A stretch of 64,000 nt of DNA from a bacterium (GCA_030693205.1 JAUYBG010000006.1:4015-68014), one strand, 5' to 3'. Counted from the stretch's first letter, positions 49,363 to 64,000 are shown. Numbers and translations are program-made. Notes: generated from the letters alone by a model not told the origin.

Positions 49363-50917
49363 CCGCCACCTTATAAATATCTCCCGCGCCCATGATCAAT
49401 AAAACATCACCGGGTTTGATTTTTTCATCGATCAATTTTCGAACTTCATCCAAATTTTTGGCATAAAAAATAGAATCGGATTGCAAAAAAACATTATTAT
49501 TGTCATTGCGAGCCCCGCTTGTCGGGGCGTGGCAATCTCTCAACTTGTTTGATAATCTGGCATTAGCCAGAGATTGCTTCGTCGCTTCGCTCCTCGCAAT
49601 GACAGCTTTTATATCTTCCGCCAGTCTTTGCGAGCTCACATTTTGATCTTTTTTTTCTTCTCTTCCTGCAACATCGAAAATTTTCGCCAAAACCAAAACA
49701 TTCGCGCTGTCAAAACTCTTCAAAAAATCATCGTAGAGCATTTTCGTCCGATTATGCTGGTGCGGCTGAAAAACCGCGACAATTCTTCGTTCGGGATAAA
49801 ATTCCCGTGCCGCTTCAATCGTCGACCTCACCGCTGTCGGATGATGCGCGTAATCGGAAATTACCGTTGCGCCGCGATATTCGCCTTTTATCTCAAATCT
49901 CCGCCAAATTCCGCCAAAATCAGCTAAGGATTTTTTTATTTTTTCCGCATCAATTTTCAAATGCAAGCCTGTTGCTATTGCGGCTAACGCGTTATAAACA
50001 TTGAATTTCCCGGGAAGTTTAATCACAAACTCGCCCAAATCTTTATCTCTATAATTTACTTTGAATTTTGTTTTCCCGTTCTCGGTTTTAAAATCATACC
50101 CCCTTACATCATTATTCTCGCCGAGACCAAATTGTATAATTTTCAGCTTTGCATTCGGACTTTTAACTTTTAACTTTAAACTTTCAACTTGCTTGTCGTC
50201 TCCATTCAAAATCAAAACTCCATTATCCGGCAAATGTCCAATAAATTCCTCAAAGGCGCTTCTGAAGTCTGCAATATCTTTATAGTAATCCGTATGGTCA
50301 AGCTCGATATTATTCAAAACGATAATTTTCGGATAATATTCCAAAAAATCACGCTTGTATTCGCAAGCTTCCGCAATAAAATAATGTTCACTGTTTATCG
50401 AGTTGCCAATTCTCAAATTTCCATCAAATTCCGGCACTTTACTCCCTACCACGACACTCGGATCCAATCCGCCGCCTGCCAAAACAAGGCCAACCATTGA
50501 AGTCACAGTTGACTTGCCATGCGTTCCGCAAACAGCAACACCAAATTTATCATTCAATAAAAACCCCAAAGCTTCCGGATAGCTCATAAGAGGTATCCTG
50601 TTTTCTTTAGAGGCTATCATTTCAACATTATCGTAAGCTATCGCAGGCGTATAAATAGCCAGATCCGCGTCCTTCGGCACATTTTCTTTTTTTTGGCCGA
50701 TAAAAATTTTTGCTCCCATTTTTTCTAGCTTTGCCGTAATATCGGATTCACCCAGATCTGAACCGCTAACCTTCTTGCCTTGCGCAAGCATAAGCTTGGA
50801 TATCGCAGAAATGCCAATTCCGCCAATTCCAATAAAATGAATTTTTTTTATTTTATCAAAATCTATTTTTTTCAACCCGTTAAAAATTCCCATATTTATG
50901 CTATCGTTTATTGCCAA
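49343..50917 (-). CDS. murC: UDP-N-acetylmuramate--L-alanine ligase. It contains a 34-codon in-frame palindromic insertion.
   Basis: GIGGIGISAIS (N-terminal Rossmann) and GTHGKSTVTSM (Mur ligase P-loop). The C-terminal domain is interrupted by ARSEATKQSLANARLSNKLRDCHAPTSGARNDNN. Confidence 0.85.
   Translation of the reverse strand: MAINDSINMGIFNGLKKIDFDKIKKIHFIGIGGIGISAISKLMLAQGKKVSGSDLGESDITAKLEKMGAKIFIGQKKENVPKDADLAIYTPAIAYDNVEMIASKENRIPLMSYPEALGFLLNDKFGVAVCGTHGKSTVTSMVGLVLAGGGLDPSVVVGSKVPEFDGNLRIGNSINSEHYFIAEACEYKRDFLEYYPKIIVLNNIELDHTDYYKDIADFRSAFEEFIGHLPDNGVLILNGDDKQVESLKLKVKSPNAKLKIIQFGLGENNDVRGYDFKTENGKTKFKVNYRDKDLGEFVIKLPGKFNVYNALAAIATGLHLKIDAEKIKKSLADFGGIWRRFEIKGEYRGATVISDYAHHPTAVRSTIEAAREFYPERRIVAVFQPHQHNRTKMLYDDFLKSFDSANVLVLAKIFDVAGREEKKDQNVSSQRLAEDIKAVIARSEATKQSLANARLSNKLRDCHAPTSGARNDNNNVFLQSDSIFYAKNLDEVRKLIDEKIKPGDVLLIMGAGDIYKVADELVKK
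49504..49605. repeat. 102-bp palindromic element inserted in-frame within murC. It has 11-bp terminal inverted repeats gtcattgcgag/ctcgcaatgac and nested hairpins.
   Basis: TIR at 49504-49514 versus 49595-49605. Inner palindromes are ccccgcttgtcgggg, and gcaatctct...agagattgc. The length is 102 bp, 34 codons with no stop. The core ctcaacttgtttga resembles the AAACAAGTT motif of the intergenic elements. Confidence 0.7.
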
Positions 50918-51049: not shown

Positions 51050-52156
51050 CTATTTTCCCAGTCTTATAATCTCCTCAGCGATCAATTGCGCCGCATCGAG
51101 CGACATTAATTGCCTGGCGGCGCGAATCATCTGAACTTGCTTTGATTTATTGTCCAATATTCCAAAAATAGCGTCATAAAGCATATTGGGCGTCAGGTTA
51201 GTTTCATCCAGCAACAACGCCGCGCCTTTGCTGCTGTAATAATAAGCGTTTTTTAATTGATGGGCGCCGGCAGAATTCGGAAGAGGAACTAAAACCACCG
51301 GCTTATTCAAATTGATTATTTCCGAAATATTATTTGCTCCGGCCCTGCTGACGACCAGGTCGCTTATGGCATAAGCATCCTTAAGATTGTCTAATAAAAA
51401 AGGATAAGGATGATAATCTTCAATGTTTGTCAGGCCAAAATCGGAAATTGTTTTTTTTACATCTTCATAATTATCAATCCCGCATACATGTATGACCTGA
51501 GCCTTCGTAACGATCTTAACTAGCGCCTCCAGCACTATATTATTAATTTTTTGCGCTCCTTGGCTTCCCCCTAATATCAAAAGCGTGGGTAAATCTCTTT
51601 TCAAGCCAAATTCTTCTATTGCCCGCTCTTTATCGCCCTGAAAAATCTCCTGGCGAACCGGATTGCCCGTAAGAATTATTTTCTTCCTGCTAAAATAATT
51701 TCCCGCCTCGGCAAAAGAAACCGCGATCCTGTTGGCCAATTTTCCTTCAATGGTATTTGCCAATCCCGCCACCGAATCAGATTCATGAATAATTATCGGG
51801 ATGCGGAAAAACCAGGCCGCTAGCACGACTGGAAAAGACGCATATCCGCCTTTTGAAAATACCACATCGGGCATAAACGAATAGACTTGGAAAAAAGCCT
51901 GAATTGCGCCAATCGGCAAGTTTATCAAATCAATAATATTATCAATTGACCAATATCTGCGCAGTTTATACGCCTTAATGGTCTTAATCGGGATACCGGA
52001 AATAGCGATAACTTCATTAAACGGACTATCACTGCCTATAAACAGAAAATTTGGTATTTCGTGAAGCGTACTTAATATTTCTTTTACTTTTGCGGCTACT
52101 GCGATAATAGGCATAATATGCCCTCCTGTTCCGCCGCCGGTAAATAATACTCTCAT
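51050..52156 (-). CDS. murG: UDP-N-acetylglucosamine--N-acetylmuramyl-(pentapeptide) pyrophosphoryl-undecaprenol GlcNAc transferase.
   Basis: MRVLFTGGGTGGHIMP is the GT28 N-terminal G-loop. There is a C-terminal UDP-GlcNAc binding region. Confidence 0.85.
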   Translation of the reverse strand: MRVLFTGGGTGGHIMPIIAVAAKVKEILSTLHEIPNFLFIGSDSPFNEVIAISGIPIKTIKAYKLRRYWSIDNIIDLINLPIGAIQAFFQVYSFMPDVVFSKGGYASFPVVLAAWFFRIPIIIHESDSVAGLANTIEGKLANRIAVSFAEAGNYFSRKKIILTGNPVRQEIFQGDKERAIEEFGLKRDLPTLLILGGSQGAQKINNIVLEALVKIVTKAQVIHVCGIDNYEDVKKTISDFGLTNIEDYHPYPFLLDNLKDAYAISDLVVSRAGANNISEIINLNKPVVLVPLPNSAGAHQLKNAYYYSSKGAALLLDETNLTPNMLYDAIFGILDNKSKQVQMIRAARQLMSLDAAQLIAEEIIRLGK

Positions 52157-52250
52157 GGTAATAAGATAGTTAACATGCTTCTTTAACTACGAACAAGCAG
52201 AAAGCTTATCTCTAAAACTCTCTGCTTTTTTTGGGAATTTATTAGTTATT

Positions 52251-52607
52251 CTATTTCTTCTTGCTCGTTTTAATTTTTTTAGCCGCACGAGAAATATTTT
52301 TCCAATGTGATTTCATTTCTTCCGCAAACGTTGATAGTTCGGCCGCGCTAATATCTTTTGCGGCTTCATATTTTGGCTTAACTTCATCAATAATTTGATT
52401 GTACTTTTCCTCCGTCAAATCCTGGACTTTCTGGACTTTTTCAGCGGTTTCTTTTTGCATTTCCGCCATCCAGCTTTTAATTTTTTTTGCGGCTTTTTTC
52501 CTGTCTTTAGGCGAAGTTAAAAGATAAGCTGCTAGGGCTGCACCGGCTACTAATCCGGCTCCGACTAAAATTTTCTTTGTGTTGTCGCTATTTTGCGTCT
52601 TTACCAT
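52251..52607 (-). CDS. YtxH-like small membrane-anchored helical protein.
   Basis: N-terminal TM helix (GAGLVAGAALAAYLL), then a charged helical region. 118 aa. Confidence 0.45.
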   Translation of the reverse strand: MVKTQNSDNTKKILVGAGLVAGAALAAYLLTSPKDRKKAAKKIKSWMAEMQKETAEKVQKVQDLTEEKYNQIIDEVKPKYEAAKDISAAELSTFAEEMKSHWKNISRAAKKIKTSKKK

Positions 52608-52624
52608 ATTTTTAATTTAATTAA

Positions 52625-52867
52625 TTATTTTTTTAAAAACTTGCCGACACCTTTAACAATTCCTTTTATTATTTTTCCGCTTGTAAGAGTCAGGTCATTC
52701 TCGAGCACTGTCAGTTTTTCTTCCAAACTGCCTTCGAGAGATTTCACTCGTTTTATAATAATAACCGCGTCCTGCAAAAAAATTATCGCGTAATATAAAA
52801 CCATGCTTAGTTCAACGGCTAATATAAGCAACAAAACCGCAATAAATAATAAAAGAAAATCTTGCAT
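52625..52867 (-). CDS. Small membrane protein (DUF948/YtxH-like).
   Basis: 80 aa with an N-terminal TM helix and a charged helix. Confidence 0.35.
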   Translation of the reverse strand: MQDFLLLFIAVLLLILAVELSMVLYYAIIFLQDAVIIIKRVKSLEGSLEEKLTVLENDLTLTSGKIIKGIVKGVGKFLKK

Positions 52868-52959
52868 ACGGCGCTAATAACGGTTAAATAAATACTTTAT
52901 AATTATACCGCATTTCTAAAATTAGTAAAGCCCTTAATTATTAGTCCGCTATTTCTTTC

Positions 52960-53166
52960 CTAGATCCCTATCCCCCTAGCCCAGCCGAAGATGTTCTCGA
53001 ATTGGTTGATGATCATCTGGATGATGGATTGGCGTTTGACCGGCGAGAGGACCGTGTAGTCGGAGGAGATGATGGTGTTGCCGAACTTGTCAGTGGAAGC
53101 GACGCGGAAGCGGTAGACGGTGCCGGGTTTGAATTGGGTAAGGACCACGATGTGGTTCGTGCCCAA
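52960..53166 (-). pseudogene. High-GC gene fragment encoding the C-terminal strands of an FN3/Ig-like domain, embedded in the low-GC dcw region.
   Basis: About 52% GC over about 200 bp, against a background near 35%. Codon choice is ggc/acc/gtc/cgc/ttc-rich. The peptide is ...TQFKPGTVYRFRVASTDKFGNTIISSDYTV... with no start codon and no N-terminal part. Confidence 0.5.
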
Positions 53167-53289
53167 ACCTAAAAATTTACATTTTTTCTTTCTTTTTTAA
53201 TTATACTACTTTTTCAGAATTATGCCAAGCATCACTTTATAGTTTTAGCTATCTCTTTTGAAAAATATTTTCCATATAAGATTTTATGT

Positions 53290-54399
53290 TTAATGAGATT
53301 TTCTTGGAGTATGGCTTGAAACATTCAATATTATCCCAACCCCGAACAAAGCAGTTGCTAGCGCAGACCCGCCATAGCTGATAAAAGGCATAGGAACTCC
53401 CGTCATCGGTATAAATTGCGTAATCGCGGCAATATTCATAAAAAACTGAATAACAAGAATAAAAGTAATTCCGGAAACCAATAATTTCCCAAAATTATCC
53501 GGCGCGTTCTTGGCTATGATAAAACACCGCCAAACAAATATTAAAAATAAAATGATCAACGCCAAAAGTCCCGCGAAACCCAGCTCTTCTCCGGTAATAG
53601 CAAAAATAGAATCGCCGAAAGGCTCGGGCAAATAATTATATTTTTGCCGGCTCTGTCCCAAACCCAGGCCGAATAATCCGCCTGAACCTATGGCAATTAC
53701 CGCTTGATTGATCTGATAGCCGGTATTCAACAAATCCGCCTTCGGATCCAAAAAAGTCACAAAACGTTGCAATCGATAAGGTTCAGTTTTAATAAAAACC
53801 GCCAAAGCGGAAATCCCCAAAATTATTAACGAAAAAACGTGAATTATTTTTGCTCCGGAAACATAATAAAGTGCCAGGGCGGACAGCGTAACAATGCCAA
53901 GCATTCCCAGGTTCGGCTGAGCAATAATAAGAACGCTTAAAATCGCTACGATGGCCAAAAATGGAAAAAGCGTCGCTTTGATATCGTTTATCTTGCTGCC
54001 TTTTTTATCAAGCCATGCCGCCAAATAAATAATAAAAAACATCTTAACAAACTCAGACGGCTGAAGCGTATAGGAACCAATAGTGATCCATCTTGCCGCT
54101 CCGCCATGATAAAAGCCCAGAGACGGGATAAGAACAACAACTAAACCAATAACGCTAACAACAAAAAGAATTGGGGATAATTTTATCCACCGGCGATAAT
54201 AAAATTTTAAAGCGAAAAGAAAAAAAATAATTCCCGGAATAATTCCGTAAATAAGCTGATGCTTGGCGTAGTAATAGCGATCGCCAAATTCCTGAAACCC
54301 TTTAATGACGCTAGCGCTGGCCACCATTATCAAACCAAACAGCAATAAAAGCAATACTGTTCCGATTAAAACGTAGTCTGGCCTGTAAGATTTAATCAT
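53290..54399 (-). CDS. ftsW: SEDS-family peptidoglycan glycosyltransferase (FtsW by dcw context).
   Basis: Ten TM helices. GSGGLFGLGLGQS..K..YLPE..DSIFA is the SEDS signature. Its position between murD and murG supports the FtsW call. Confidence 0.8.
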   Translation of the reverse strand: MIKSYRPDYVLIGTVLLLLLFGLIMVASASVIKGFQEFGDRYYYAKHQLIYGIIPGIIFFLFALKFYYRRWIKLSPILFVVSVIGLVVVLIPSLGFYHGGAARWITIGSYTLQPSEFVKMFFIIYLAAWLDKKGSKINDIKATLFPFLAIVAILSVLIIAQPNLGMLGIVTLSALALYYVSGAKIIHVFSLIILGISALAVFIKTEPYRLQRFVTFLDPKADLLNTGYQINQAVIAIGSGGLFGLGLGQSRQKYNYLPEPFGDSIFAITGEELGFAGLLALIILFLIFVWRCFIIAKNAPDNFGKLLVSGITFILVIQFFMNIAAITQFIPMTGVPMPFISYGGSALATALFGVGIILNVSSHTPRKSH

Positions 54400-55820
54400 A
54401 AAACAGTCAGCTTTAATTTATCATAGACTTCCCGAATAATTAATTCGGCATCCGCCGTAAGATGATAATCAGCTGAAACAAACGACCCCGTAGATTCAAC
54501 TCGAGCCGCTTCGCTTTCCGGTTTTATCTTTCTCCCCTTTGCCGCCGCCAGAACAATAAGCTCATTTGGCGATTTTAAATCAAGAACAGAATACCCTGGC
54601 CGCAAAAAATTCAACTTGTCATTTTCAAGACAATAAACTCCTGCTTTTAATTCGCTGCTTGGAGCACACACCATTTTTTCTTTATTCCTTAAAACCAGCT
54701 GTGAACCGGAAATGGCTAAAACATTCTTGTTGGATAGATCTTTGGCTCTGGGATCAACATCATATTTTTCTCCTAAAAATTCAAGAAAATGCAAAGCGAT
54801 CATGGGAATTGCTAAATTTTTAATTTCCAGTTTTGTGTAAAAAGGTATGGAAGCGACAAATCGCGGATTGATCTCGATTAAATAAACATCTTCGTTTTTT
54901 TCGCTTATGATAAAATCCAAGCCAAAAATCCCTTTATATCCTTTTCCTTTAAGATACATCCCTATTTTTTTACCAATTCCGTTCATTTCATCCAGTGCCT
55001 TGGCTGAAACAGAAAGGACTCCCCAATCGTTTCCGCAAGTTGTGCCGAGATTATTCGTGCATAATTCTTCGCCGGTAATCTGATAGCACGGCTTACCCAC
55101 ATAAGCCCCCGATGAAGTAACACAAGCATTAACCGTTGCAGGAATGCCGCGAATAAACTTCGAAACTTTTACCATAAAAGATTTTTTGCCGGACGGATTG
55201 CGAAAAAAAGTATCCATTAACCTGCCGTAGTCATCTTTGCTTCTGATAAAAAAAGTGGAACTGCCGGCATAACCGCTTTTAAGCTGAATGACGAAATAAT
55301 CGTAATATTTTTTCAACTCCCAATAACTGATGCGCCCGAAATCTATCGTTTCCGCGTCGGGAGTTCTTATGTGCAAACTTTTGGCGATAAACAAGAAATT
55401 GAACTTATCCTCGATCTCTTTCGACAAAACTGTCGTGTTGTTCAAAAATTTCCAATTATTTTCCAAAGCGATCTTTTCGGCCGCCAGTGACGGCTTGAAT
55501 ACGACCACTGCCGCTTGCACGCCCGGCGGAGTGTTTTCCTTTATATATTTTTTAACCGATTCTTGGCCCAGCAATATCGCGGAACTCCTAAGGATCACGT
55601 TCTTCTTGCCAAATTCTTTTTCCAGACAAAAAATTTTTGCGCCCGCCTTTTCCAGATAGTCCACTTCGTCATCATAATCAATGCAAATAATGTGGTAGTT
55701 GGGAATAATATTCTCCAAACCTATGCCTCTGTCAACAACGTTTGAAACATAAAAAATCGGAGTTTTTGAACCCTCAAAAATCTTTTTTATGTCAGCTAAA
55801 TTGTTTATTGTATATGCCAT
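54396..55820 (-). CDS. ATP-grasp family carboxylate-amine ligase of unknown specificity, translationally coupled to ftsW.
   Basis: GLDFIISEKNEDVYLIEINPRF is the ATP-grasp Mg/ATP motif. It is 474 aa with a 4-nt overlap with the ftsW start. Confidence 0.6.
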   Translation of the reverse strand: MAYTINNLADIKKIFEGSKTPIFYVSNVVDRGIGLENIIPNYHIICIDYDDEVDYLEKAGAKIFCLEKEFGKKNVILRSSAILLGQESVKKYIKENTPPGVQAAVVVFKPSLAAEKIALENNWKFLNNTTVLSKEIEDKFNFLFIAKSLHIRTPDAETIDFGRISYWELKKYYDYFVIQLKSGYAGSSTFFIRSKDDYGRLMDTFFRNPSGKKSFMVKVSKFIRGIPATVNACVTSSGAYVGKPCYQITGEELCTNNLGTTCGNDWGVLSVSAKALDEMNGIGKKIGMYLKGKGYKGIFGLDFIISEKNEDVYLIEINPRFVASIPFYTKLEIKNLAIPMIALHFLEFLGEKYDVDPRAKDLSNKNVLAISGSQLVLRNKEKMVCAPSSELKAGVYCLENDKLNFLRPGYSVLDLKSPNELIVLAAAKGRKIKPESEAARVESTGSFVSADYHLTADAELIIREVYDKLKLTVL

Positions 55821-55919
55821 ATATTAAATTATATGAATATTGATATTCTATCATTTTTTTAGGAAAAAAACAAAAAATGCGCGAAAACTAAAATTAACCT
55901 GCAAATTAAAAAAGCGGCC

Positions 55920-56381
55920 CTAAAAGAAAATTTTTAACGCGCCCAAAGTAACTCCCAGCACCAAAAATCCAGCGATAATAATTCCCGCGCTGATTAAAGC
56001 CAGCGCCCGACAAAAAGGAATTCCGAAAAGAAACGCGATTATCGCGGCTGTCCATGCGCCAGTCATAGGCAGCGGAATCGCCACAAACATAACTAAAGCC
56101 AAACTGCCCCAATTCTCGTGTTTTTTATAATAATTCTTTCTCGTTTTCAAAAGAACTTTCCATAAAAACCGCTTTAAAAAAGGCAAACGCCTCGTTAAAA
56201 TTTTTACCGCAGGACATAAAAAGCGAATAAGCAGCACCGCAATGGCGATATTGCCTGATATTGACCAAAACAGCGCGTTCGCCGGCGACATTTTATACAC
56301 GCCAATAGCCAGCGGTATAGCCGCGCGCAGTTCGCCTATCGGCGTCATTGCTGTTAAAAATGTAGCTAACTCCTGATTCAT
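55920..56381 (-). CDS. Small integral membrane protein (COG2426-like).
   Basis: 153 aa with four predicted TM helices. Confidence 0.35.
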   Translation of the reverse strand: MNQELATFLTAMTPIGELRAAIPLAIGVYKMSPANALFWSISGNIAIAVLLIRFLCPAVKILTRRLPFLKRFLWKVLLKTRKNYYKKHENWGSLALVMFVAIPLPMTGAWTAAIIAFLFGIPFCRALALISAGIIIAGFLVLGVTLGALKIFF

Positions 56382-56484
56382 AAAATAAAATATTAATGAT
56401 CAAGTTGCGAAATGAATTGCATTATACTATCGAATAATAATTATGCGGTCATGGAATTACTTTAAATAAGTCTAAATTTTAAAT

Positions 56485-57564
56485 TTAGACTTTAAAATTA
56501 AACTCCAGCCTTTTAAATACTTCTTCAACTTCATCTATATTCTCCGCTCTAAAAATATTCCTGCTTTCAATATCCTCTATTTTACCATTTGTTTTCTTTC
56601 CTGTCAGCAACACTACGACTTTCTTGCCTTTCACTTTTTCTCTAAGTTTTATCGCGCCGGCAAAACCGGCCGCGCTTTCATAGCCTGTTTCAATATTATT
56701 TTTTTCTAAAATTTTACTTGCTTCCGTAATATCGACATCAGCCACTACCGCTCCTCCGCCGGCGGAATTTTTAATCACCATCAAAATATTTACTAATTTT
56801 TCTTCCGGAATATTTTTTGCCACGATCCCGCGCGCCAAACTTTCATTTCCGCCTATAAATTTTTTGTCAAAATGCCCGGCGATCGGATGAACTTTGGCGG
56901 TCTGCACCACGTATATGGCAGGAATTTTTTTAATCTCTCCGGATTGCGCCAAATCATCAAAGGCTTCAGCAATAGCAATTACCGTGCTGGCGCTGGAAGT
57001 AGGAATAAAAATCGCATCAATCTCGCCGCAGTGTTCAAAAATCTCAAAAGCGATTGATTTTAATCCGTAATAAGATTTTTCATCCGCGCCTGGCCGGAGA
57101 TTCCTGATTTTAAACTTTTTAGAAGCCAGATCCGCCAAAGTGAGCGCGTGTTTGGAAATTATTATTTTTGCGCCGCACCCCGCCATTTTAATTAATTTTT
57201 CTTTATCGATCTTGGGCGAAACAAATATAAAAAGTTTTATGCCGGCTAGCTGGCAATAAGCCGCAGCGGATACTGCCGCGTTGCCGGAAGAAGAAATGAT
57301 CAATACTTTTTCTCCGTTCTCTTTGGCGCGTGAAACTTGATAAGCAAGCAATCTGTCTTTGTGTGAACCATTGGGATTAAGATCTTCACGCTTAAAAATC
57401 AGCTCTTTAAAACCTAGCTCTTTGGCAATATTCGGCATACTGATCTCCGGCGTATTTCCCTCATTCAAAGTCAGCCGATTTTCTTTTTTGATCATCGGAT
57501 AAAAACCAGCGTAACGCCAGACATTTTTTAACTCAGAATTAATTTTTGATCGAAAAATTGACAT
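56485..57564 (-). CDS. thrC: PLP-dependent fold-type II enzyme, threonine synthase-like.
   Basis: VWRYAGFYP...LNEGNTP is the ThrC N-terminal motif. LNPNGSHKDR carries the PLP lysine. There is a glycine-rich loop SSGNAAVS. Confidence 0.55.
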   Translation of the reverse strand: MSIFRSKINSELKNVWRYAGFYPMIKKENRLTLNEGNTPEISMPNIAKELGFKELIFKREDLNPNGSHKDRLLAYQVSRAKENGEKVLIISSSGNAAVSAAAYCQLAGIKLFIFVSPKIDKEKLIKMAGCGAKIIISKHALTLADLASKKFKIRNLRPGADEKSYYGLKSIAFEIFEHCGEIDAIFIPTSSASTVIAIAEAFDDLAQSGEIKKIPAIYVVQTAKVHPIAGHFDKKFIGGNESLARGIVAKNIPEEKLVNILMVIKNSAGGGAVVADVDITEASKILEKNNIETGYESAAGFAGAIKLREKVKGKKVVVLLTGKKTNGKIEDIESRNIFRAENIDEVEEVFKRLEFNFKV

Positions 57565-57608
57565 TTTAAAATTTTATGTTAAAGTTAAAGAAAAATAGGA
57601 GGTAAAAA

Positions 57609-57821
57609 ATGGGTGACTTAATCGATCTTTTAAAAATGTTTTCCGCGCCGACTATTGTTCCGGTATTGATAATGTTAGCGCTTGTAAAGATCCATATTGC
57701 ACTTTTTGGCACAGCTGCACTTTTTAATCCGCTATCGCAAGTAATCATTGTCATAATTGCTTGTATAGCAATATTAACAGTTTGGAAATACATGTTAAAA
57801 GATGTAGATATGAGCTTATAG
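57609..57821 (+). CDS. Small hydrophobic membrane protein (70 aa).
   Basis: A strong RBS (aggagg, 8 nt upstream), two predicted TM helices, and a hairpin terminator after it. The overlapping minus-strand ORF 57566-57793 was rejected. Confidence 0.5.
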   Translation: MGDLIDLLKMFSAPTIVPVLIMLALVKIHIALFGTAALFNPLSQVIIVIIACIAILTVWKYMLKDVDMSL

Positions 57822-57848
57822 GACTCGCTTGGGTCCTTTTTTTATTTG
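57819..57848 (+). terminator. Rho-independent terminator.
   Basis: aggac-tcgcttgg-gtcct followed by tttttttatttg. Confidence 0.55.
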
Positions 57849-57909
57849 ACTCAAAAGCTGATTTTAGATATTATAATACTAGAATTTTAACATTTTAACA
57901 TGTAAATAT

Positions 57910-58065
57910 ATGTCTTCACAATGCGATGTTTGTAAAAAAGATATTTTAGCCGATGATTTTCCTAATATCACCATCGGAGATGTTATCAGCTGCCCTCACT
58001 GCGGGTGCGAACTGGAAGTGATAAGCATCGAACCTCTGGAAGTGCAAGCGCTGGAAGAAAAATGA
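57910..58065 (+). CDS. 51-aa zinc-ribbon protein (CxxC...CxxCGCELEV) resembling LysW/ArgW amino-group carrier proteins. Not in the ORF track because it is under 60 aa.
   Basis: Manual translation: MSSQCDVCKKDILADDFPNITIGDVISCPHCGCELEVISIEPLEVQALEEK. The CPxCGxELEV...PL spacing is LysW-like, but the terminal EDWGE is absent. Confidence 0.4.
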   Translation: MSSQCDVCKKDILADDFPNITIGDVISCPHCGCELEVISIEPLEVQALEEK

Positions 58066-58070
58066 CCTTT

Positions 58071-58178
58071 GGTCATCCCGAATTTATTTCGGGATCTTTA
58101 ATGCTTGTTTCTATTTTCATAGATTCTATTGTGCAATATAGTAGTTCCTATAGATCCTGAAACAAGTTCAGGATGACA
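58071..58178. repeat. Second composite inverted repeat of the AAACAAGTT family. Arms ggtcatcccgaatttatttcgggatctt and tagatcctgaaacaagttcaggatgaca flank a 52-bp centre.
   Basis: The second arm is 26/28 identical to the reverse complement of 31826-31853. Both arms end in TGTCAT/ATGACA-like termini. It overlaps the murD 3' end. Confidence 0.65.
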
Positions 58179-59667
58179 GATTAAACTTTTCCACAATTAA
58201 ATTCCTTATCGGTTTTTTAAGAATATCAATGTACCTCGCTTGAAAATGCGCCGAGGCAGGCGAAATTAATACAATATCGCCTGTTTTTATTTGCTCTTTT
58301 AATAGATCCAGCGCCTCTAAAAAATCATTATATTCAAAAAGTTTCATTTTTTGACATTCGGCGTTTATAATTTGGTTTTTAATAATATCACTTCCTGTTC
58401 CCGGCAATAAAATCAAGATATCCACCTTGCCGACAATCTCTTCCGTCATCCCTGCATAATCCATCCCTTTATCGTCCCCGCCCATAATTAAAATCATTCT
58501 TGACTCTTGGCTCTTGATCCTTAACTCATTCAGCGCTTTTATCGCCACGATCGTAGAATCAGGGTTGGTAGAAGCCAGATCATCATAAAATTTTACCCCA
58601 TTATATTCACCGATAAATTCGATTCGATGCGGAAGGCCTTGAAAATCCTGAATTGTTTTTTTTATTTCTTCCGGCTCCGCGCCCGCCAAAGAACCAACCA
58701 ATGCTGCGGCTAAAACATTCTCTATATTATGTTCACCTAGAAGCTTAATATCCCTCAAATCGCAAATCTCTTTTTTATCACTTTTAATTTTTACAAAAAT
58801 TTTTCCGTTTTCCACGCAAGCTCCGCTTTTAACTTCACTTTTTCTGCTGAAGAAAAAAACTTTTATGCCTCGCGTAATCAATTCTTCGCCAATTTTTTTT
58901 GTAATTTCATTATCATAATTCAAGACTGCGACATTATCTTTTTTCGTATATTGAAAAAGGCTTTTTTTAACCGCAATGTATTTCTCAAAGCTGCCATGCT
59001 CATCAATATGATCAGGCGAAATATTGGTAATTATTCCGATATCAGGGCTTCTGCCCAAATCAATCGTTAGCTGGCGATTGCTTGTTTCCAATACTAAAAT
59101 ATTGTCTTTCCCCATTTTTGAAACCTTATCCGGCTCTTGCGCGCTTCGCCGGTCATTGCCCGCCAAATACACATTTTTCTTTTTGCCGGATTTTAATAAA
59201 ATTTCATAGATCAACCGCGAGGTAGTGCCCTTGCCTTTTGTGCCGGTAACAGAAATTATTTTTCCCTTAGCCATCTCAAAATATAATTTAGTCAGACTAG
59301 AAAATTCAATGCTTTTTTTCTTCGCATCTTCGAGTCCGGGGAAATTGGGTTTGTACAAATACCAAGATGACGGCACAAAAACAATATCCGCGCTATCCAC
59401 ACCTTCAAGATATTTATCCTTAAGTTTTAATTTTATCGGCAATTGTAAAAAATTTTCAAACGCTTTAATTTTTTCTTTTCCTTTCAGCCACAAATGCGTC
59501 TTAAAAAAATTATTTTTAAATTCTTCCTGATCCCGAGAAAAATCATGCGCCGTAATGCTTTTAATCCCGTTTTTAATGAAAAATTCCAAAACCGCGCTTC
59601 CTTCCGTTCCCGAAACGCCGACAATATGAATATTCTTGGTTTTAATTTTTTCTAAAAATTTATTCAC
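58168..59667 (-). CDS. murD: Mur ligase, most likely UDP-N-acetylmuramoylalanine--D-glutamate ligase.
   Basis: N-terminal Rossmann IHIVGVSGTEGSAV. The P-loop is ISVTGTKGKGTTSRL and the Mur ligase central and C-terminal domains are present. The position upstream of ftsW supports MurD. Confidence 0.65.
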   Translation of the reverse strand: MNKFLEKIKTKNIHIVGVSGTEGSAVLEFFIKNGIKSITAHDFSRDQEEFKNNFFKTHLWLKGKEKIKAFENFLQLPIKLKLKDKYLEGVDSADIVFVPSSWYLYKPNFPGLEDAKKKSIEFSSLTKLYFEMAKGKIISVTGTKGKGTTSRLIYEILLKSGKKKNVYLAGNDRRSAQEPDKVSKMGKDNILVLETSNRQLTIDLGRSPDIGIITNISPDHIDEHGSFEKYIAVKKSLFQYTKKDNVAVLNYDNEITKKIGEELITRGIKVFFFSRKSEVKSGACVENGKIFVKIKSDKKEICDLRDIKLLGEHNIENVLAAALVGSLAGAEPEEIKKTIQDFQGLPHRIEFIGEYNGVKFYDDLASTNPDSTIVAIKALNELRIKSQESRMILIMGGDDKGMDYAGMTEEIVGKVDILILLPGTGSDIIKNQIINAECQKMKLFEYNDFLEALDLLKEQIKTGDIVLISPASAHFQARYIDILKKPIRNLIVEKFNLSS

Positions 59668-59686
59668 GTTTTTTCTTTAAAAGATT

Positions 59687-60223
59687 TTATGCAATAAAAC
59701 TTCCGATCGCTTTGGCAATATCCTCGCCATTCTTATCCACTGCTATTTTAAACCATACCGTATAATTTCCGGAATTTTCTGAAATATCTTTTTTTAATTC
59801 GTCGAAATTGATCCATTTCCAGTCATCAGCCTCTTCCGGATTAATGCGCGGCTCGCCATCGAATCTTCCAATAAAAACATGATCAAATTCATGTTCCCAA
59901 AGCCCATGATCAAGCTTTGCCTTATAAATAAAACTAAAAATTTCTTTCATCTCGCAATCAAAGCCCATTTCTTCCTGAAGCCGCCGATGCACTGCCTCTT
60001 CAAATCTCTCTCCGCTTCCCGGGTGACTGCAACACGTATTGGTCCAAAGCCCGCCGGAATGGTATTTTGATCTGGCGCGTTGCTGCAACATCAATTCTCC
60101 TTTGGAATTAAAAATAAAAATTGAAAATGCGCGATGAAGCTTTCCTTCCTGGTGCACTTTTAATTTTTCTCCCAAACCTATCTCTTTATCGTTTTTGTCG
60201 ACAAGTATGATTTTTTCTTCCAT
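59687..60223 (-). CDS. idi: Isopentenyl-diphosphate delta-isomerase, type 1 (Nudix fold).
   Basis: HRAFSIFIFNSKGELMLQQRA..K.HSGGLWTNTCCSHP matches the IDI-1 active-site Cys/Glu region. Confidence 0.8.
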   Translation of the reverse strand: MEEKIILVDKNDKEIGLGEKLKVHQEGKLHRAFSIFIFNSKGELMLQQRARSKYHSGGLWTNTCCSHPGSGERFEEAVHRRLQEEMGFDCEMKEIFSFIYKAKLDHGLWEHEFDHVFIGRFDGEPRINPEEADDWKWINFDELKKDISENSGNYTVWFKIAVDKNGEDIAKAIGSFIA

Positions 60224-60249
60224 AATATTTTATTTATCGGAATCGCGTT

Positions 60250-60966
60250 TCACAACAATGCTACATCGTTGATTATCAGATCAAAATCATAACCTAAATA
60301 TTCAGCCGCACTGCGACAGTATGTCATTCGACCAGTAAATATTTCAAAATACTCGATTATGGGCACAAATTTCGTATCGATCTTAATGGTTAAAATTATT
60401 TTTTTCTTATCTTTGCTGACTTTTAAATGCGCTTCCGTGGTGGCGTAATTGACCCTATCATGAATGTCTTCCTTGATCTCGTCCAAATTTTTGGAAAAAA
60501 CTCTTTTTCTCGACACGTCGGATTTATCGGCCAGAACGACAATCGCTGAAATAATATTGGTAAAACGCATTTCTTCTTTGTCATGATTGGCAATCGCCTG
60601 CATTACCCGCGTTAAATCCTCCGGAGAAAGATCGGTGGAAAAAAACTGACTGAATAAAAGCGCCCCCCAATAATGATGGCTCGTTCTTCCGACAAAATTT
60701 CCAATATCATGGCAATAGCCGGCGATGGCGGCAAGCTCCATATCTTTTAATCCTAATCCCATATCTTGGGCAATATTGCGGGCTCGATCGGAAACCAACG
60801 TCGCGTGCCGCAAGCCGTGCTCGGTATACGAAAGCGCCTTTAAAGAAGCTTCTGACTGCTTGATAAATTCCAAAACCATCGGATGGCTTTTGATTTTTGC
60901 CAACAAATTAAAATTCGCTAAATTATTTTCCGGCCTATCCGATCCTAAATTTATTTTTTTTATCAT
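60250..60966 (-). CDS. HD-domain phosphohydrolase.
   Basis: H...HD motif (GLRHATLVS...GYCHDIGN). Confidence 0.65.
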   Translation of the reverse strand: MIKKINLGSDRPENNLANFNLLAKIKSHPMVLEFIKQSEASLKALSYTEHGLRHATLVSDRARNIAQDMGLGLKDMELAAIAGYCHDIGNFVGRTSHHYWGALLFSQFFSTDLSPEDLTRVMQAIANHDKEEMRFTNIISAIVVLADKSDVSRKRVFSKNLDEIKEDIHDRVNYATTEAHLKVSKDKKKIILTIKIDTKFVPIIEYFEIFTGRMTYCRSAAEYLGYDFDLIINDVALL

Positions 60967-60991
60967 TTTTGTTCCTTTCTTATTATTGAAT

Positions 60992-61990
60992 TTATTTTTT
61001 AATTAAAACCTGTTTAATTATTCTTCGGACAGAAATCAAATTATAAAACTTTAAAATATCGGGCAAATCTTCGATCGCGACTCCTCCGATTTCCCGCCGG
61101 GCATTTAGAATTAAAATGCTGTTAGAAGTCTGGCGTTTGGCTTTTGGCGTTTTGAATTTTTCCACAACTATGCCGATGTGCGCAACTTTTGTCGCCTTGC
61201 GGCGCAAAAACACCAGATCGCCGAAGTGCGCCGCGCTCAGCTCGATTTTTTCGCCGCAAAGCGCTTGATCGCTGGAATGTCGCGGCAAAAGAATTCCAAA
61301 AATATCCGAATAAAATTTCTGCGTCAATCCCGAGCAGTCAATGCTTTGTCCGGTCATACCTCCCAATAAATACTGAGCATTCAAATATTTTTCCAAAAAA
61401 CGAAGGAACTTGCTCTGAATATTTTTTGCCAAACGCTTTCTGACCACCTCGCCCGCCCTTACCCTTTTTGTTTTTATCCATTCTTTCTTTATTATTTCCC
61501 ACTTGCTAAGTGCTATCCGGGAAGAATCCACCCAGCCGATCGTCAGATCGCGAGTTTGCGCCAGATACCAAATACCTTCTTTGAGTAATATTCTCACAAA
61601 ATCACCTTTCATCGCCTGGCTAGCCAACCCGCCTAGACTCGATTTATTCGAGGCTGGTGATTCTCCGGTTGTATTTTTTTTATCTGACAATTTTACCCGC
61701 ATATCGGCAACATCGGCCGTAATTATACCCCATCCGATTTCCAAATCATCTTTCGGATCGCTTAAAACCCTGATGCTGTTCTTAACTCTATTGTTTTTTA
61801 TGATTTCTTTTACGGTTACAAAAACTTCATTTTTCTGTTTCTCTGACAAAACCGCGCCCTCGAGAATAATAAAATCGTTAAAACTTTTTACTTTTACGTC
61901 AAAAAATACCGCGCCGTACTTTTTTTTATAGCGTGACTTAATATTTTTTATTTTTTTTTCCACCGATGATATCAAGATGCTTTTTATCAT
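60992..61990 (-). CDS. NlpC/P60 (C40) family cell-wall peptidase with N-terminal SH3-like domains.
   Basis: Catalytic triad context SIDCSGL...H.GDLVFL...HIGIV. Confidence 0.75.
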   Translation of the reverse strand: MIKSILISSVEKKIKNIKSRYKKKYGAVFFDVKVKSFNDFIILEGAVLSEKQKNEVFVTVKEIIKNNRVKNSIRVLSDPKDDLEIGWGIITADVADMRVKLSDKKNTTGESPASNKSSLGGLASQAMKGDFVRILLKEGIWYLAQTRDLTIGWVDSSRIALSKWEIIKKEWIKTKRVRAGEVVRKRLAKNIQSKFLRFLEKYLNAQYLLGGMTGQSIDCSGLTQKFYSDIFGILLPRHSSDQALCGEKIELSAAHFGDLVFLRRKATKVAHIGIVVEKFKTPKAKRQTSNSILILNARREIGGVAIEDLPDILKFYNLISVRRIIKQVLIKK

Positions 61991-62012
61991 TTTTTGTTTC
62001 TTAAATTAAAAA

Positions 62013-63071
62013 CTACCTTGCCACTGTCGCAATGATCAATCCTACCGCCGCGGCCATTCCGGAAATTATCCAAAATCGCATCGTTACTTTTGTTTCAGGC
62101 CAGCCCAAAGCTTCAAAATGATGATGGATCGGCGTACTCAAGAATATTTTCCTGCCCCAATATTTTTTTGAGATCGTCTGAATAATTACCGACCCGGACT
62201 CGATCACCAAAATGATCGCGATGATCGGCAATATAAAAACCGTATCAGTAAGCATTGCGATTATTCCGAGAGTTGTTCCCAGCGCCATCGAACCGGTATC
62301 GGTCATAAAAAACATCGCCGGATAAATATTATACCAGACAAAAGCAAGCAGCGTGCCCAAGATCGCCGCGATAAAAATAGTCAGTTCGATATTCCCTTGC
62401 ATAAAAGCGATCATCGCATAAGCGCCGAATGATGTCAAAGCTACGCCTCCGGCCAAACCATCAAGCCCGTCAGTTTCATTTAGAGAAAAAGATGTCGCTA
62501 CCACTACCAAAATAAAAAGCGGAATATACCATAAACCCAAATACACCTCGCCCAATCCGGGAATACTGATCGCGTTCCATTCAAGCTTATAGTAAAGCCA
62601 CCATGCTCCGCCGACAGCAACCAGCGTATAAAGCAATAGCCTGATCTTCACGCTTAACCCTCCGCCATTCGGACCGATCTTAAAAATATTCAGAATATCG
62701 TCAAGCGCCCCGATAATTCCGGCGATAACCATTGCGCCGATCGGAAGCCATGTCTTCTCACGGCTTAAAAAATTCAATCGATCGAATATTGAGTCCGAAA
62801 AAATATGCGCTAAAAAAGCAAAACCTAGGGCGAGCGCCAAGACCGGCACCCAGATTATCAGACCGCCCATTGTCGGAGTGCCTGTTTTTTTTTGATGAAG
62901 CGCGGTAAAAACCGGCGTATTGCCCTCGGCGCGAATACTTTTGCCTAATTTATGGCGAATTAAAAACCTGATAAATGCCGGCGTGATCGCCCAAGCGGCA
63001 ATAAACGCAATTATAAAAACGATTAAAACTCCGATTATTTCTCGCGAATAAAACATAAGTTTAATTTTCAA
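62013..63071 (-). CDS. mraY: Phospho-N-acetylmuramoyl-pentapeptide transferase.
   Basis: Ten TM helices. LNETDGLDGLAGG and TPTMGGLIIW are MraY motifs. Confidence 0.85.
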   Translation of the reverse strand: MKIKLMFYSREIIGVLIVFIIAFIAAWAITPAFIRFLIRHKLGKSIRAEGNTPVFTALHQKKTGTPTMGGLIIWVPVLALALGFAFLAHIFSDSIFDRLNFLSREKTWLPIGAMVIAGIIGALDDILNIFKIGPNGGGLSVKIRLLLYTLVAVGGAWWLYYKLEWNAISIPGLGEVYLGLWYIPLFILVVVATSFSLNETDGLDGLAGGVALTSFGAYAMIAFMQGNIELTIFIAAILGTLLAFVWYNIYPAMFFMTDTGSMALGTTLGIIAMLTDTVFILPIIAIILVIESGSVIIQTISKKYWGRKIFLSTPIHHHFEALGWPETKVTMRFWIISGMAAAVGLIIATVAR

Positions 63072-63084
63072 TTTTTAATTATTT

Positions 63085-63960
63085 TTATTTCCATTCATAA
63101 GAATCCCAGATCCATTTTACCAATTTTTCCATTTCCGAGAATCTGCCATTAGCGCCGATCACCACAGCCACTATTCGATGCTGACGCGTTGAATCTTCGA
63201 CTACCAAAAGCAAGCTCTCTCCCGCCTCATCCGTATATCCTGTTTTTCCGCCGATTATTCCGGGCAAATTCCCCAAAAGTTTATTGGTATTTTTTATAAA
63301 ATGATCGTTCTTGCCGTCAGCTGATCTTATATTTATCTTATCAATTATGGTTATGCTAAAAATTTCCGGATAGTCATTGAGAAGGCCTCTTGATAACGTC
63401 ACGACATCTTTCGCCGTAGAATAATTATCTCTTTCATCAACGCCATCAGGATTGGTAAAATGAGTGCCGGTCAATCCCTCTTTTTCCGCGAAATTATTCA
63501 TTAATCCGACGAAGTAACGGATTCCTTGCTCTTTTGAATTATTTTTTTTCGTAATATCTTCCGCGATCGCGCGGGCGGCGCCATTGCTTGAAGCGATAAG
63601 CATTATTTTTAAAAGATCGCCGACTTTTATTTTTTCGCCAATTAATAAATAACCGCTGTCTCCTTCAGCCCCAAGCGCTGTTTTGCTTATCTCCACGATC
63701 TCACTAAAATTATAATTCCCTGCCTTAATTATCAAATTAGAATTCTCGGTTTTAATAAAATCCAGCATAGCGCTGGCCGTCGCAAGCTTGGTAAGGCTGG
63801 CGATCTTAACTTTTTGCTCCGCGTCTTTTTCATAAAGCGTCTGGCCGCTAAAATCATCAACCGCCAAAACCGATTTGGCATTAATTAAAATATCATTTTT
63901 CCCCTCTTTTCTAACCGGCACTAAAATTTTCTCAAACGGCAAAACATAATTTTGACGCAA
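63085..63960 (-). CDS. dacA: D-alanyl-D-alanine carboxypeptidase (class-A low-MW PBP, S11 family).
   Basis: SLTK (SxxK), SSN (SxN) and KTGYT (KTG) motifs are in the correct order and spacing. Confidence 0.75.
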   Translation of the reverse strand: MRQNYVLPFEKILVPVRKEGKNDILINAKSVLAVDDFSGQTLYEKDAEQKVKIASLTKLATASAMLDFIKTENSNLIIKAGNYNFSEIVEISKTALGAEGDSGYLLIGEKIKVGDLLKIMLIASSNGAARAIAEDITKKNNSKEQGIRYFVGLMNNFAEKEGLTGTHFTNPDGVDERDNYSTAKDVVTLSRGLLNDYPEIFSITIIDKINIRSADGKNDHFIKNTNKLLGNLPGIIGGKTGYTDEAGESLLLVVEDSTRQHRIVAVVIGANGRFSEMEKLVKWIWDSYEWK

Positions 63961-64000
63961 AAAAAATGTATTTTTCCCGGTTTCCGGCCATTTTGGCGCA

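Follow-up and report, generated by a model that had tools for sequence, protein, structure and literature searches.

The window analysed here, a stretch of 64,000 nucleotides (nt) from a bacterial genome (GCA_030693205.1 JAUYBG010000006.1:4015-68014), carries within its division and cell wall (dcw) cluster a gene for an ATP-grasp ligase of 474 amino acids (aa), which belongs to a conserved unit of an NlpC/P60 amidase, the Mur ligase MurD, a LysW-like carrier protein, a pyridoxal 5'-phosphate (PLP) enzyme and the ATP-grasp ligase itself. This unit is a widespread, undescribed gene set in the ultra-small bacteria of the Candidate Phyla Radiation (CPR). We tentatively propose that the ligase may be the loading ligase of a LysW-type carrier module that serves the MurD step of peptidoglycan synthesis, the step at which D-glutamate (D-Glu) enters the stem peptide at position 2. 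An earlier note, made from the sequence of the window alone, had placed the ligase gene at 54396..55820 on the minus strand and had seen in it a possible cross-bridge ligase. The open reading frame (ORF), its ATG start and the motif KGIFGLDFIISEKNEDVYLIEINPRF are indeed present, and the ORF is not a chance one, since an exhaustive profile search for its family recovers 1115 cluster representatives at E <= 1e-30.

The module and its association with MurD

To describe the surroundings of the ligase we compared about 160 related loci, of which 79 came from species-representative genomes searched with the ligase (12-sequence alignment) and 80 from metagenomes searched with the neighbouring MurD. 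These surveys cover +/-10 kb around each match, the proteins of the window and the E. coli dcw proteins served as annotation probes, and the partner counts take the loci with enough flank as denominators. A neighbour-joining tree of the ligases shows two groups, clade I, with the window protein and the module, and clade II, to which we return below. In a Parcubacteria relative (L001/L002) with a ligase 35% identical to that of the window, the order is MraY, NlpC/P60, MurD, a 50-aa gene on the opposite strand, PLP enzyme, ATP-grasp ligase, FtsW, MurG, MurC, ABC and MurB, and the 50-aa gene bears the precomputed Pfam assignment 'Zn_ribbon_LysW'; indeed, the carrier gene of relatives lies in the same position and on the divergent strand. 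Among the 42 non-redundant clade I loci from species-representative genomes, the PLP enzyme is found in 28/36 and the carrier in 23/33. With the metagenome loci anchored on the MurD subtype found in the window (hereafter M-type), the carrier is present in 51/59, the PLP enzyme in 38/43 and the ligase in 29/34, and a papain-like amidase lies upstream in 50/53.

The same partners occur as fused proteins within clade I, where the ligase is joined to the PLP enzyme (P0073, P0085, P0093 and P0425), to an amidase of the 'NlpB' family (P0374 and P0397) or to NlpC/P60 (P0426, P0466 and P0475). The complete unit of amidase, MurD, carrier, PLP enzyme and ligase is also found outside any dcw cluster (L030, L070, L072 and L060). 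In one metagenome-assembled genome (MAG), assigned to 'Gemmatimonadetes', MurD, carrier and PLP enzyme share a contig and the ligase is on another, and a Poribacteria MAG (L167) has a homologue of the PLP enzyme alone, outside the module. Among the MurD loci with enough flank, the module follows the type of MurD: it accompanies 53 M-type genes and is missing beside 6, as against 0 and 5 for canonical MurD (Fisher's exact p = 6e-5), and four of the six M-type loci without it have less than 1.2 kb of downstream sequence.

The earlier note had laid its emphasis on co-translation with ftsW. The overlap is real, the plus strand reading TCAT at 54396-54399, which is ATGA in the coding sense, so that the TGA of the ligase overlaps the ATG of FtsW. 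In relatives, ftsW is directly downstream of the ligase in 23/38 clade I loci, and among the 24 such loci in which ftsW follows within 400 nt, the two genes overlap or are <=5 nt apart in 14, but once the loci are anchored on M-type MurD, FtsW follows downstream in only 7/27, and the weight placed on FtsW is not supported. The ligase had also been thought to fill, alone, the interval between murD and ftsW; it does adjoin ftsW, but the carrier, the PLP enzyme and a PF06695 gene stand between it and murD. Thus MurD, rather than FtsW, is the tightest peptidoglycan neighbour of the module. The broader link to peptidoglycan holds well, as the location of the ligase in clusters for peptidoglycan precursors is conserved across very divergent Patescibacteria (35% identity).

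These observations bear on the idea of a cross-bridge ligase. In Enterococcus faecium, the D-aspartate ligase and racemase pair Aslfm/Racfm uses an acceptor lysine in UDP-N-acetylmuramic acid (UDP-MurNAc)-pentapeptide. By analogy, the ligase might act directly on UDP-MurNAc-peptide, adding a D-amino acid supplied by the PLP enzyme, with the zinc ribbon as an accessory or regulatory subunit; the conserved location in Mur/dcw clusters, the often tight coupling to ftsW, a PLP enzyme always adjacent or fused and a ligase that is not LysX-like all agree with this. We nevertheless consider it unlikely, because it leaves unexplained the EEK ending that a true LysW homologue keeps almost without variation, the ligase-amidase fusions, the tie to a remodelled MurD outside dcw clusters and the absence of FtsW from 20/27 MurD-anchored loci. 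What stands of the earlier idea is an ATP-grasp carboxylate-amine ligase linked to peptidoglycan, and what is not supported is a stand-alone, Aslfm-like action on UDP-MurNAc-pentapeptide, given the carrier, PLP enzyme and amidase as partners and the fusions. The likeness to Aslfm/Racfm lies in an ATP-grasp ligase beside an enzyme that possibly makes a D-amino acid and, as proposed here, in an amide to the epsilon-amine of a lysine; the differences are an acceptor lysine that would lie in a carrier protein, and the amidase, carrier and MurD as additional constant partners. These constant partners and the specialised MurD, found together outside dcw clusters as well, point to the D-Glu step at position 2 and to a substrate tethered to a protein, and not to a cross-bridge.

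The module alternates with the glutamate racemase MurI. In type C loci, which include one from a Paceibacterota genome, the order is MraY-MurI-MurD-FtsW-MurG, with the Asp/Glu racemase confirmed by Pfam in the same slot, and in L098 murD overlaps murI; the type C loci and L098 are without carrier, PLP enzyme and amidase. MurI is present in none of the 42 clade I loci, nor in the module-bearing metagenome loci, and canonical MurI adjoins murD only in relatives without the module.

Ligase, carrier and partner enzymes

The ligase passes the threshold of Pfam ATP-grasp_3 (PF02655; 31.6 bits against a cut-off of 23.2), a generic domain and its sole Pfam match. The best NCBIfam model, PRK06524 (NF005096, 'biotin carboxylase'), aligns over residues 5-469 at 136.3 bits, far below its cut-off of 684, and the relatives score 97-171 bits in every clade tested; a sequence search of the PDB yields no more than a local match (E = 0.04), in which the aligned part is the catalytic loop of carbamoyl-phosphate synthetase (CPS). 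The AlphaFold model (AF2, built on 45 homologues), with a predicted local distance difference test score (pLDDT) of 94.5, has a three-domain ATP-grasp fold, and its best solved structural neighbours are biotin carboxylase (BC) domains, PurD, PurT, PurK and a Streptomyces peptide ligase, with template modelling (TM) scores of 0.5-0.6 at 10-15% identity and with BC/PurD/PurT at E ~ 1e-16. The top 50 structural matches are of the BC/PurD/PurT/PurK type. In an alignment of 45 sequences, E137, K139, D302, E316, N318 and R320 are invariant, and the fold, together with the Mg/ATP acidic pair and the E-x-N(-x-R) loop, places the protein in the ATP-grasp superfamily. Taken together, the Pfam, NCBIfam, PDB and AlphaFold comparisons identify it as a predicted three-domain carboxylate-amine ligase of the BC/CPS type, in a family without a characterised member.

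The ligase shares with biotin carboxylase, PurD, PurT and PurK the three-domain fold, the E-x-N-x-R catalytic loop and the full-length alignment to NF005096, and is set apart from them by the low identity, TM scores and NF005096 scores given above. On these scores, we rule out an orthologue of a purine enzyme, of CPS or of biotin carboxylase, and no biotin-carrier or carboxyltransferase partner was recognised among the neighbours of the ligase. No Ddl model matched in Pfam or NCBIfam, with hhalign giving a probability of 2.4% against E. coli DdlB, and no RimK/LysX match was found at E <= 0.01 in NCBIfam (TIGR00768 and relatives). A canonical Ddl lies beside the module within the same cluster in L011, L015, L016 and L018, and a role as Ddl replacement is therefore excluded. 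The NCBIfam and Pfam matches of the ligase at E <= 0.01 include no D-aspartate ligase family, Aslfm itself not being among the proteins compared.

Clade II ligases come from both CPR bacteria and DPANN archaea, where they adjoin a RimK-like ATP-grasp protein and a seven-transmembrane (7-TM) protein and have Mur neighbours in one lineage only. Their loci are L031-L082, as in L048:10001-11431, where the ligase is downstream of the RimK-like ATP-grasp and the 7-TM membrane protein. Some clade II ligases are fused to a MATCAP-type tyrosine carboxypeptidase-like domain (PF08014, 154.7 bits) or to GNAT (P0467, P0445), and from its sequences clade II looks like an uncharacterised ligase/peptidase system at C-termini. 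These sister-clade fusions suggest, by analogy with tubulin tyrosine ligase, that the wider family may work on acidic protein C-termini. A separate reading takes the module to be unrelated to the cell wall, as a small modified-peptide or protein-tagging system (graspetide- or RimK-like) that hitch-hikes in dcw clusters, and the DPANN loci, with their RimK-like ligase and 7-TM protein and no Mur genes, lend it some weight. We regard this as very unlikely, because clade I is apart from clade II in the tree and statistically tied to a MurD subtype, and because the amidases come from families of peptidoglycan-peptide peptidases.

The carrier of the window (MSSQCDVCKK...CPHCGCELEVISIEPLEVQALEEK, with the tail ...ALEEK) exceeds the cut-off of Pfam PF21344 (27 bits) and has the CxxC...CxxC zinc ribbon of the LysW fold. 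The profile of its family matches the solved LysW structures of Thermus (3wwl, E = 1e-11), Thermococcus (2e-10) and Sulfolobus (9e-6), and the AlphaFold model, with a pLDDT of 87 that falls to 53 at the last residue, finds LysW in all of its top five Foldseek matches (TM 0.76-0.81). Judged by profiles and predicted structure, the 51-aa carrier is a true LysW homologue. The tail, however, differs: where LysW has EDWGE, its functional part, the carrier has (E)EEK. Among the 120 best family members, 117 end in K, 114 in EEK and none in EEE, and all 54 carriers that adjoin an M-type MurD end in EEK. Carriers ending in EEKG occur with an intact module (L021, P0296 and P0340), which favours the side chain over the terminal carboxylate as the functional group. 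The carrier is very acidic and its partner enzymes are basic.

Public annotation names homologues of the carrier 'lysine biosynthesis protein LysW', and this name, the LysW fold and the Pfam membership would be in keeping with a classical LysW pathway, that is, with carrier-protected synthesis of lysine or ornithine for stem position 3. Such a pathway appears extremely improbable and is already largely refuted by the missing pathway genes: the carrier falls below the LysW equivalog TIGR01206 (32.3 bits against 53.2), the EDWGE tail is absent, the partner is MurD and not MurE, and no homologues of LysX (or of a RimK-type ligase), LysZ, LysY, LysJ or LysK were recognised in the loci inspected in detail, although no LysZ/Y/J/K probe was run across the loci. 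The LysW/LysX systems of Thermus, Sulfolobus and Thermococcus (PDB 3wwl, 3vpb, 5k2m) do share with the module a small acidic zinc-ribbon carrier, an ATP-grasp ligase, a dedicated hydrolase that possibly releases the product, and basic partners. Beyond the tail, they differ from it in having a RimK/LysX ligase of ~280 aa in place of a BC/CPS-type ligase of 474 aa, and the M20 peptidase LysK in place of an NlpC/P60 amidase; here the PLP enzyme is present, MurD is the genomic partner, and no kinase, reductase or aminotransferase was recognised (again with no LysZ/Y/J/K probe).

The MurD of the window exceeds the cut-off of the equivalog TIGR01087 (211.95 bits). M-type MurD keeps K115, N138, H183, the carbamylated K198, T321 and K348, with K115, N138, H183 and K198 present in 73-74 of 74 sequences. 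The amino-acid pocket is altered: in these 74 sequences position 415 is G, H, Y or F (His in the window) and never Ser, there is a deletion of one aa at D417, and R425 is lost, so that the canonical motif S415-[FL]-[DGN]-x-F-x-[DN]-[YF]-x-x-R425-G, intact in nine canonical relatives and E. coli, is not intact in the M-type. D182 is mostly replaced by Asn, and the N-domain has an inserted segment of ~18 aa rich in basic residues. We take S415 to contact the gamma-carboxylate of D-Glu in MurD structures, a point on which one structural paper on MurD is silent. The placement of Asp182, Lys348, Ala414 and Leu416 near D-Glu has been reported (PMC8788868), and Ala414 and Leu416 flank Ser415. These sequence features mark M-type MurD as a subtype of its own, which has the look of an active Mur ligase but whose amino-acid pocket is remodelled.

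A variant MurD beside novel genes has a precedent in MurD2/MurL of Xanthomonas, found in organisms without the usual D-Glu supply, where an ATP-consuming, one-way L-to-D conversion is encoded next to the variant MurD (PMC8788868). Both systems have a variant MurD that adjoins novel genes, altered pocket residues and, as proposed here, an expenditure of ATP. They differ in that MurD2 has Arg at 348 and Glu for D182, whereas the M-type keeps K348 and mostly has Asn for D182, and in that the present proposal relies on PLP and on a carrier protein, the epimerisation preceding the UDP-sugar or being independent of it. No homologue of MurL was identified here, in an analysis that made no search aimed at one. 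In the MurD proteins of L038 and L060, Pro and Phe stand where MurD2 has P433 and F435.

The PLP enzyme has as its best PDB match the threonine synthase of Aquifex (E = 2.6e-28), but scores only 84.1 bits against TIGR00260 thrC (cut-off 167.1). It keeps the Schiff-base lysine and the SSGN loop, has SSAST where threonine synthase has GNAGN, and has nLRP[SG] in place of the phosphate site N-S-x-N-P-x-R. With a score below the TIGR00260 cut-off and the phosphate-binding motif replaced, a true threonine synthase is ruled out.

The amidase of the window has BON-like, SH3_16 and NlpC/P60 domains; its PF00877 match comes with IDCSG and AHIG in the translation, which supply the catalytic Cys and His, and its best PDB matches, MepS/Spr and the YkfC-type dipeptidyl-peptidase VI, are peptidases of peptidoglycan stem peptides. 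Two forms of amidase occur in the module, the NlpC/P60 plus SH3 form of the window and the NlpB family of ~235-285 aa, which has weak Pfam matches to Amidase_6/NlpC_P60 and in which DCSG, G-H and HSS are conserved across 12 sequences. The catalytic Cys and His are kept in both, and no signal peptide is visible in the window protein or in either form. The amidase is proposed as a cytoplasmic releasing hydrolase of the module.

A possible carrier-dependent route to D-glutamate

To our knowledge, the source of D-Glu in genome-reduced CPR lineages without an identified MurI is not established. We suggest, as a proposal still tentative in its details, that the module may form a carrier-dependent D-Glu route, in which L-Glu, loaded by the ligase on the terminal lysine of the carrier, would undergo epimerisation by the PLP enzyme and pass to MurD and the amidase for use and release. 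In the first step, the ligase would use ATP to join L-Glu, by its gamma-carboxyl, to the acidic EEEK tail, where the side chain of the invariant lysine would provide the amine. The PLP enzyme would then bind the free alpha-amino group of the tethered Glu and invert C-alpha to give gamma-linked D-Glu, a reaction for which the enzyme needs a free alpha-amine. M-type MurD, with its rebuilt gamma-carboxylate pocket, would couple UDP-MurNAc-L-Ala to D-Glu, either tethered or after release, and the NlpC/P60 amidase, from a family that cleaves stem-peptide bonds in peptidoglycan, would free the product and regenerate the carrier, before or after the MurD reaction.

Several points weigh against this route. 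The amino acid and its linkage are guesses, the conserved Arg of the PLP family (in nLRP) could bind phosphate or another anion, and we know of no threonine-synthase-like enzyme that acts as a racemase. The ligase is BC/CPS-like and not LysX/RimK-like. At L098:78-2329, translational coupling links an M-like MurD with a canonical MurI, which means that the altered pocket alone does not require a tethered substrate, and at L146:2-3212 an M-type MurD overlaps a PLP enzyme that itself overlaps FtsW, while neither a carrier nor a ligase is in view. Finally, the fusion of the sister-clade ligase to a MATCAP-type carboxypeptidase hints at chemistry at a protein C-terminus.

This last point belongs to a different scheme, modelled on the tyrosination cycle of tubulin, in which the ligase would add L-Lys to the alpha-carboxylate of an ...EEE tail, the gene encoding the pre-loaded form; the PLP enzyme would modify the side chain of the tethered Lys (e.g. 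by beta-replacement, to give a diamino-dicarboxylic acid of the lysinoalanine type), and a papain-like peptidase would release the product to the wall. An acidic tail with an encoded end residue, an ATP-grasp ligase and a papain-like peptidase mirror the ...EEY of alpha-tubulin, TTL and VASH, and the PF08014 domain of the clade II fusions strengthens the parallel. Enzymes of the PLP superfamily perform beta-replacement with amine nucleophiles, as SbnA does, and SbnA is among the weaker matches of the PLP enzyme in NCBIfam and the PDB. The likeness to the tubulin system (TTL; VASH, MATCAP) thus extends to the acidic tail, the encoded last residue, the ligase-peptidase pair and the sister-clade MATCAP fusion; the module differs in being bacterial and in its partners, which are the PLP enzyme and MurD. 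Where EEKG tails accompany an intact module, they argue against a strictly C-terminal chemistry, and none of the 120 best family members ends in EEE. The product would be one for MurE to use, yet the Mur ligase linked to the module is MurD, and the alternation with MurI would go unexplained. We therefore think this scheme improbable.

A further difficulty for the D-Glu route lies in the type B (Microgenomates-like) clusters and L042, in which the murD slot is taken up by the module and MurD is missing from the surrounding 10 kb. The murD-less clusters (L011, L012, L015, L016, L018, L021, L026, L063, L081 and L042) are otherwise near-complete, with MurA/B/C/E/F, Ddl, MraY, MurG, FtsW, FtsA and FtsZ, and their canonical murD slot is filled by amidase, carrier, PLP enzyme and ligase. 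In type B, MurD may be encoded elsewhere, or it may have been replaced by the module. Under replacement, the ligase, with carrier and amidase, would itself install residue 2 on UDP-MurNAc-L-Ala, as the position between mraY and ftsW and the presence of all other Mur enzymes would allow. As a general account this seems quite unlikely, since the module adjoins an apparently active MurD in most loci, the orthologues in sister loci (L030, L070) lie beside MurD, and the type B MurD may simply be encoded elsewhere in the genome.

The carrier-dependent route to D-Glu, by comparison with the known systems, is best filed as a variation on carrier-protein amino-acid processing that differs in its tail, its ligase class and the enzymes for tailoring and release, and for which the cell wall is a new destination. 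In the library searched, we found no paper linking LysW or amino-group carrier proteins to peptidoglycan, MurD or CPR bacteria, and the paper on the complete Microgenomates genome is silent on the details of Mur.

Layout of the window and significance of the module

The window is AT-rich (GC = 38%), and the genes near the ligase are all on the minus strand with a single exception, the carrier gene (Table 1). Past FtsW, transcription continues into genes for a YtxH-like protein, MurG, MurC, an ABC exporter and MurB. FtsW scores above the cut-off of its equivalog (337.5 bits).

Table 1. Positions of the module genes and their neighbours in the window, listed in descending coordinates
Feature	Position	Strand	Remark
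DacA-like carboxypeptidase	63085-63960	-	first of these genes in the direction of transcription
MraY	62013-63071	-	directly after the DacA-like gene in transcription order
NlpC/P60 cysteine amidase, 332 aa	60992-61990	-	Pfam NLPC_P60, 64.2 bits
HD-domain gene and isopentenyl diphosphate (IPP) isomerase (Idi, Nudix type)	59687-60966	-	between amidase and MurD
M-type MurD, 499 aa	58168-59667	-	TIGR01087, 233.1 bits
LysW-like zinc-ribbon carrier, 51 aa, isoelectric point 4.05	57910-58065	+	PF21344, 36.2 bits
Divergent intergenic region, PLP-enzyme operon versus carrier gene	57565-57909		promoter-like sites back to back
Threonine-synthase-like PLP enzyme of fold type II, 359 aa	56485-57564	-	Pfam PALP, 181.9 bits
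Small membrane protein, PF06695 (Sm_multidrug_ex)	55920-56381	-	Pfam, 102.7 bits
ATP-grasp ligase, 474 aa, clade I	54396-55820	-	Pfam ATP-grasp_3, 31.6 bits
FtsW, 369 aa	53290-54399	-	TIGR02614, 355.8 bits

In the divergent region, promoter consensus matches lie at 57898-57870 (-) and 57846-57874 (+), as pattern matches alone. The same region holds, between the start of the PLP enzyme and the carrier gene, an ORF of 70 aa (57609-57821, +) for a hydrophobic two-helix protein. A strong AGGAGG ribosome-binding site precedes it by 7 nt, and a hairpin and T-run resembling a terminator follow immediately. In the Logan assembly record for the locus, the list of genes includes this ORF and omits the LysW-like one, but the 70-aa ORF has no homologue in any of the ~160 related loci, and the conserved gene in the gap between murD and the PLP enzyme is the LysW-like ORF. 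Where the carrier gene and murD converge with their 3' ends there are two short hairpins, TCCCGAA...TTCGGGA and TCCTGAA-ACAAG-TTCAGGA, at 58070-58100 and 58150-58175, which may be terminators; the second resembles a widespread short repeat with the translation ...HPELVSGS.... A search with Rfam gave zero family matches in 52000-64000, and no riboswitch thus offers a clue to a ligand.

Some of the genes around the module are specific to one lineage. The PF06695 gene between PLP enzyme and ligase is found only in the lineage of the window (L003-L006, L093), although type C loci also encode a PF06695 protein close to their clade II ligase, and this membrane protein is probably lineage-specific and outside the core of the module. 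The P0020 ligase has an N-terminal fragment that matches a VTT/DedA domain; this fragment and the PF06695 protein may be linked to the handling of lipid carriers instead of to the module. The insertion of Idi/Nudix and HD genes between amidase and MurD is likewise seen only in the window lineage, the HD gene occurring also in L093, and the IPP isomerase would suit a supply of undecaprenyl phosphate. In another lineage, a DUF4185 protein of 661 aa lies between PLP enzyme and ligase (L017:8012-9997), with the carrier gene 5 kb away on the same strand.

In clusters of the Microgenomates type, a protein of ~260 aa with an ATE_C domain (arginyl-tRNA-protein-transferase C-terminal) is encoded between murE and murC (L012:1383-2168, L011, L015, L016, L017, L018, L021, L042, L063 and L081). 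It could be an aminoacyl-tRNA-dependent (Fem-like) transferase for the stem peptide or the cross-bridge, which is the kind of modification sought in the earlier note. The murC of the window has an in-frame insert of ~99 nt (49493-49591, -) with imperfect palindromic ends (CGAAGCGACGAAGCAATCTC...GAGATTGCCACGCC...GCTCGCAATGAC), through which MurC gains the peptide SEATKQSLANARLSNKLRDCHAPTSGARNDNNN in its C-terminal domain; a 14-mer from the insert is present again at ~22695, and the whole has the appearance of a miniature repeat element tolerated within an essential gene.

The synthesis of peptidoglycan precursors is regarded as fully mapped, MurD2/MurL excepted. A carrier route to D-Glu would, if true, be the first carrier-protein-dependent step in this synthesis and a third route of D-Glu incorporation, after MurI/Dat and MurD2/MurL. 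It would extend the LysW principle from amino-acid biosynthesis in thermophiles and secondary metabolism in Streptomyces to the cell wall, give NlpC/P60 enzymes a cytoplasmic, biosynthetic role, and add new biochemical logic to a textbook pathway. The reading of the small protein as a LysW-like carrier would also correct the mis-annotation 'lysine biosynthesis protein LysW' in organisms without that pathway. In its widest form, which we put forward with slightly more reserve than the route itself, the proposal is that in much of the CPR and some other lineages a protein carrier may be the site where residue 2 of the stem peptide is made: the LysW-like protein would offer a tethered amino acid, whether D-Glu derived from L-Glu or even something non-canonical, first to the PLP enzyme and then to the specialised MurD, with NlpC/P60 as a biosynthetic release factor.

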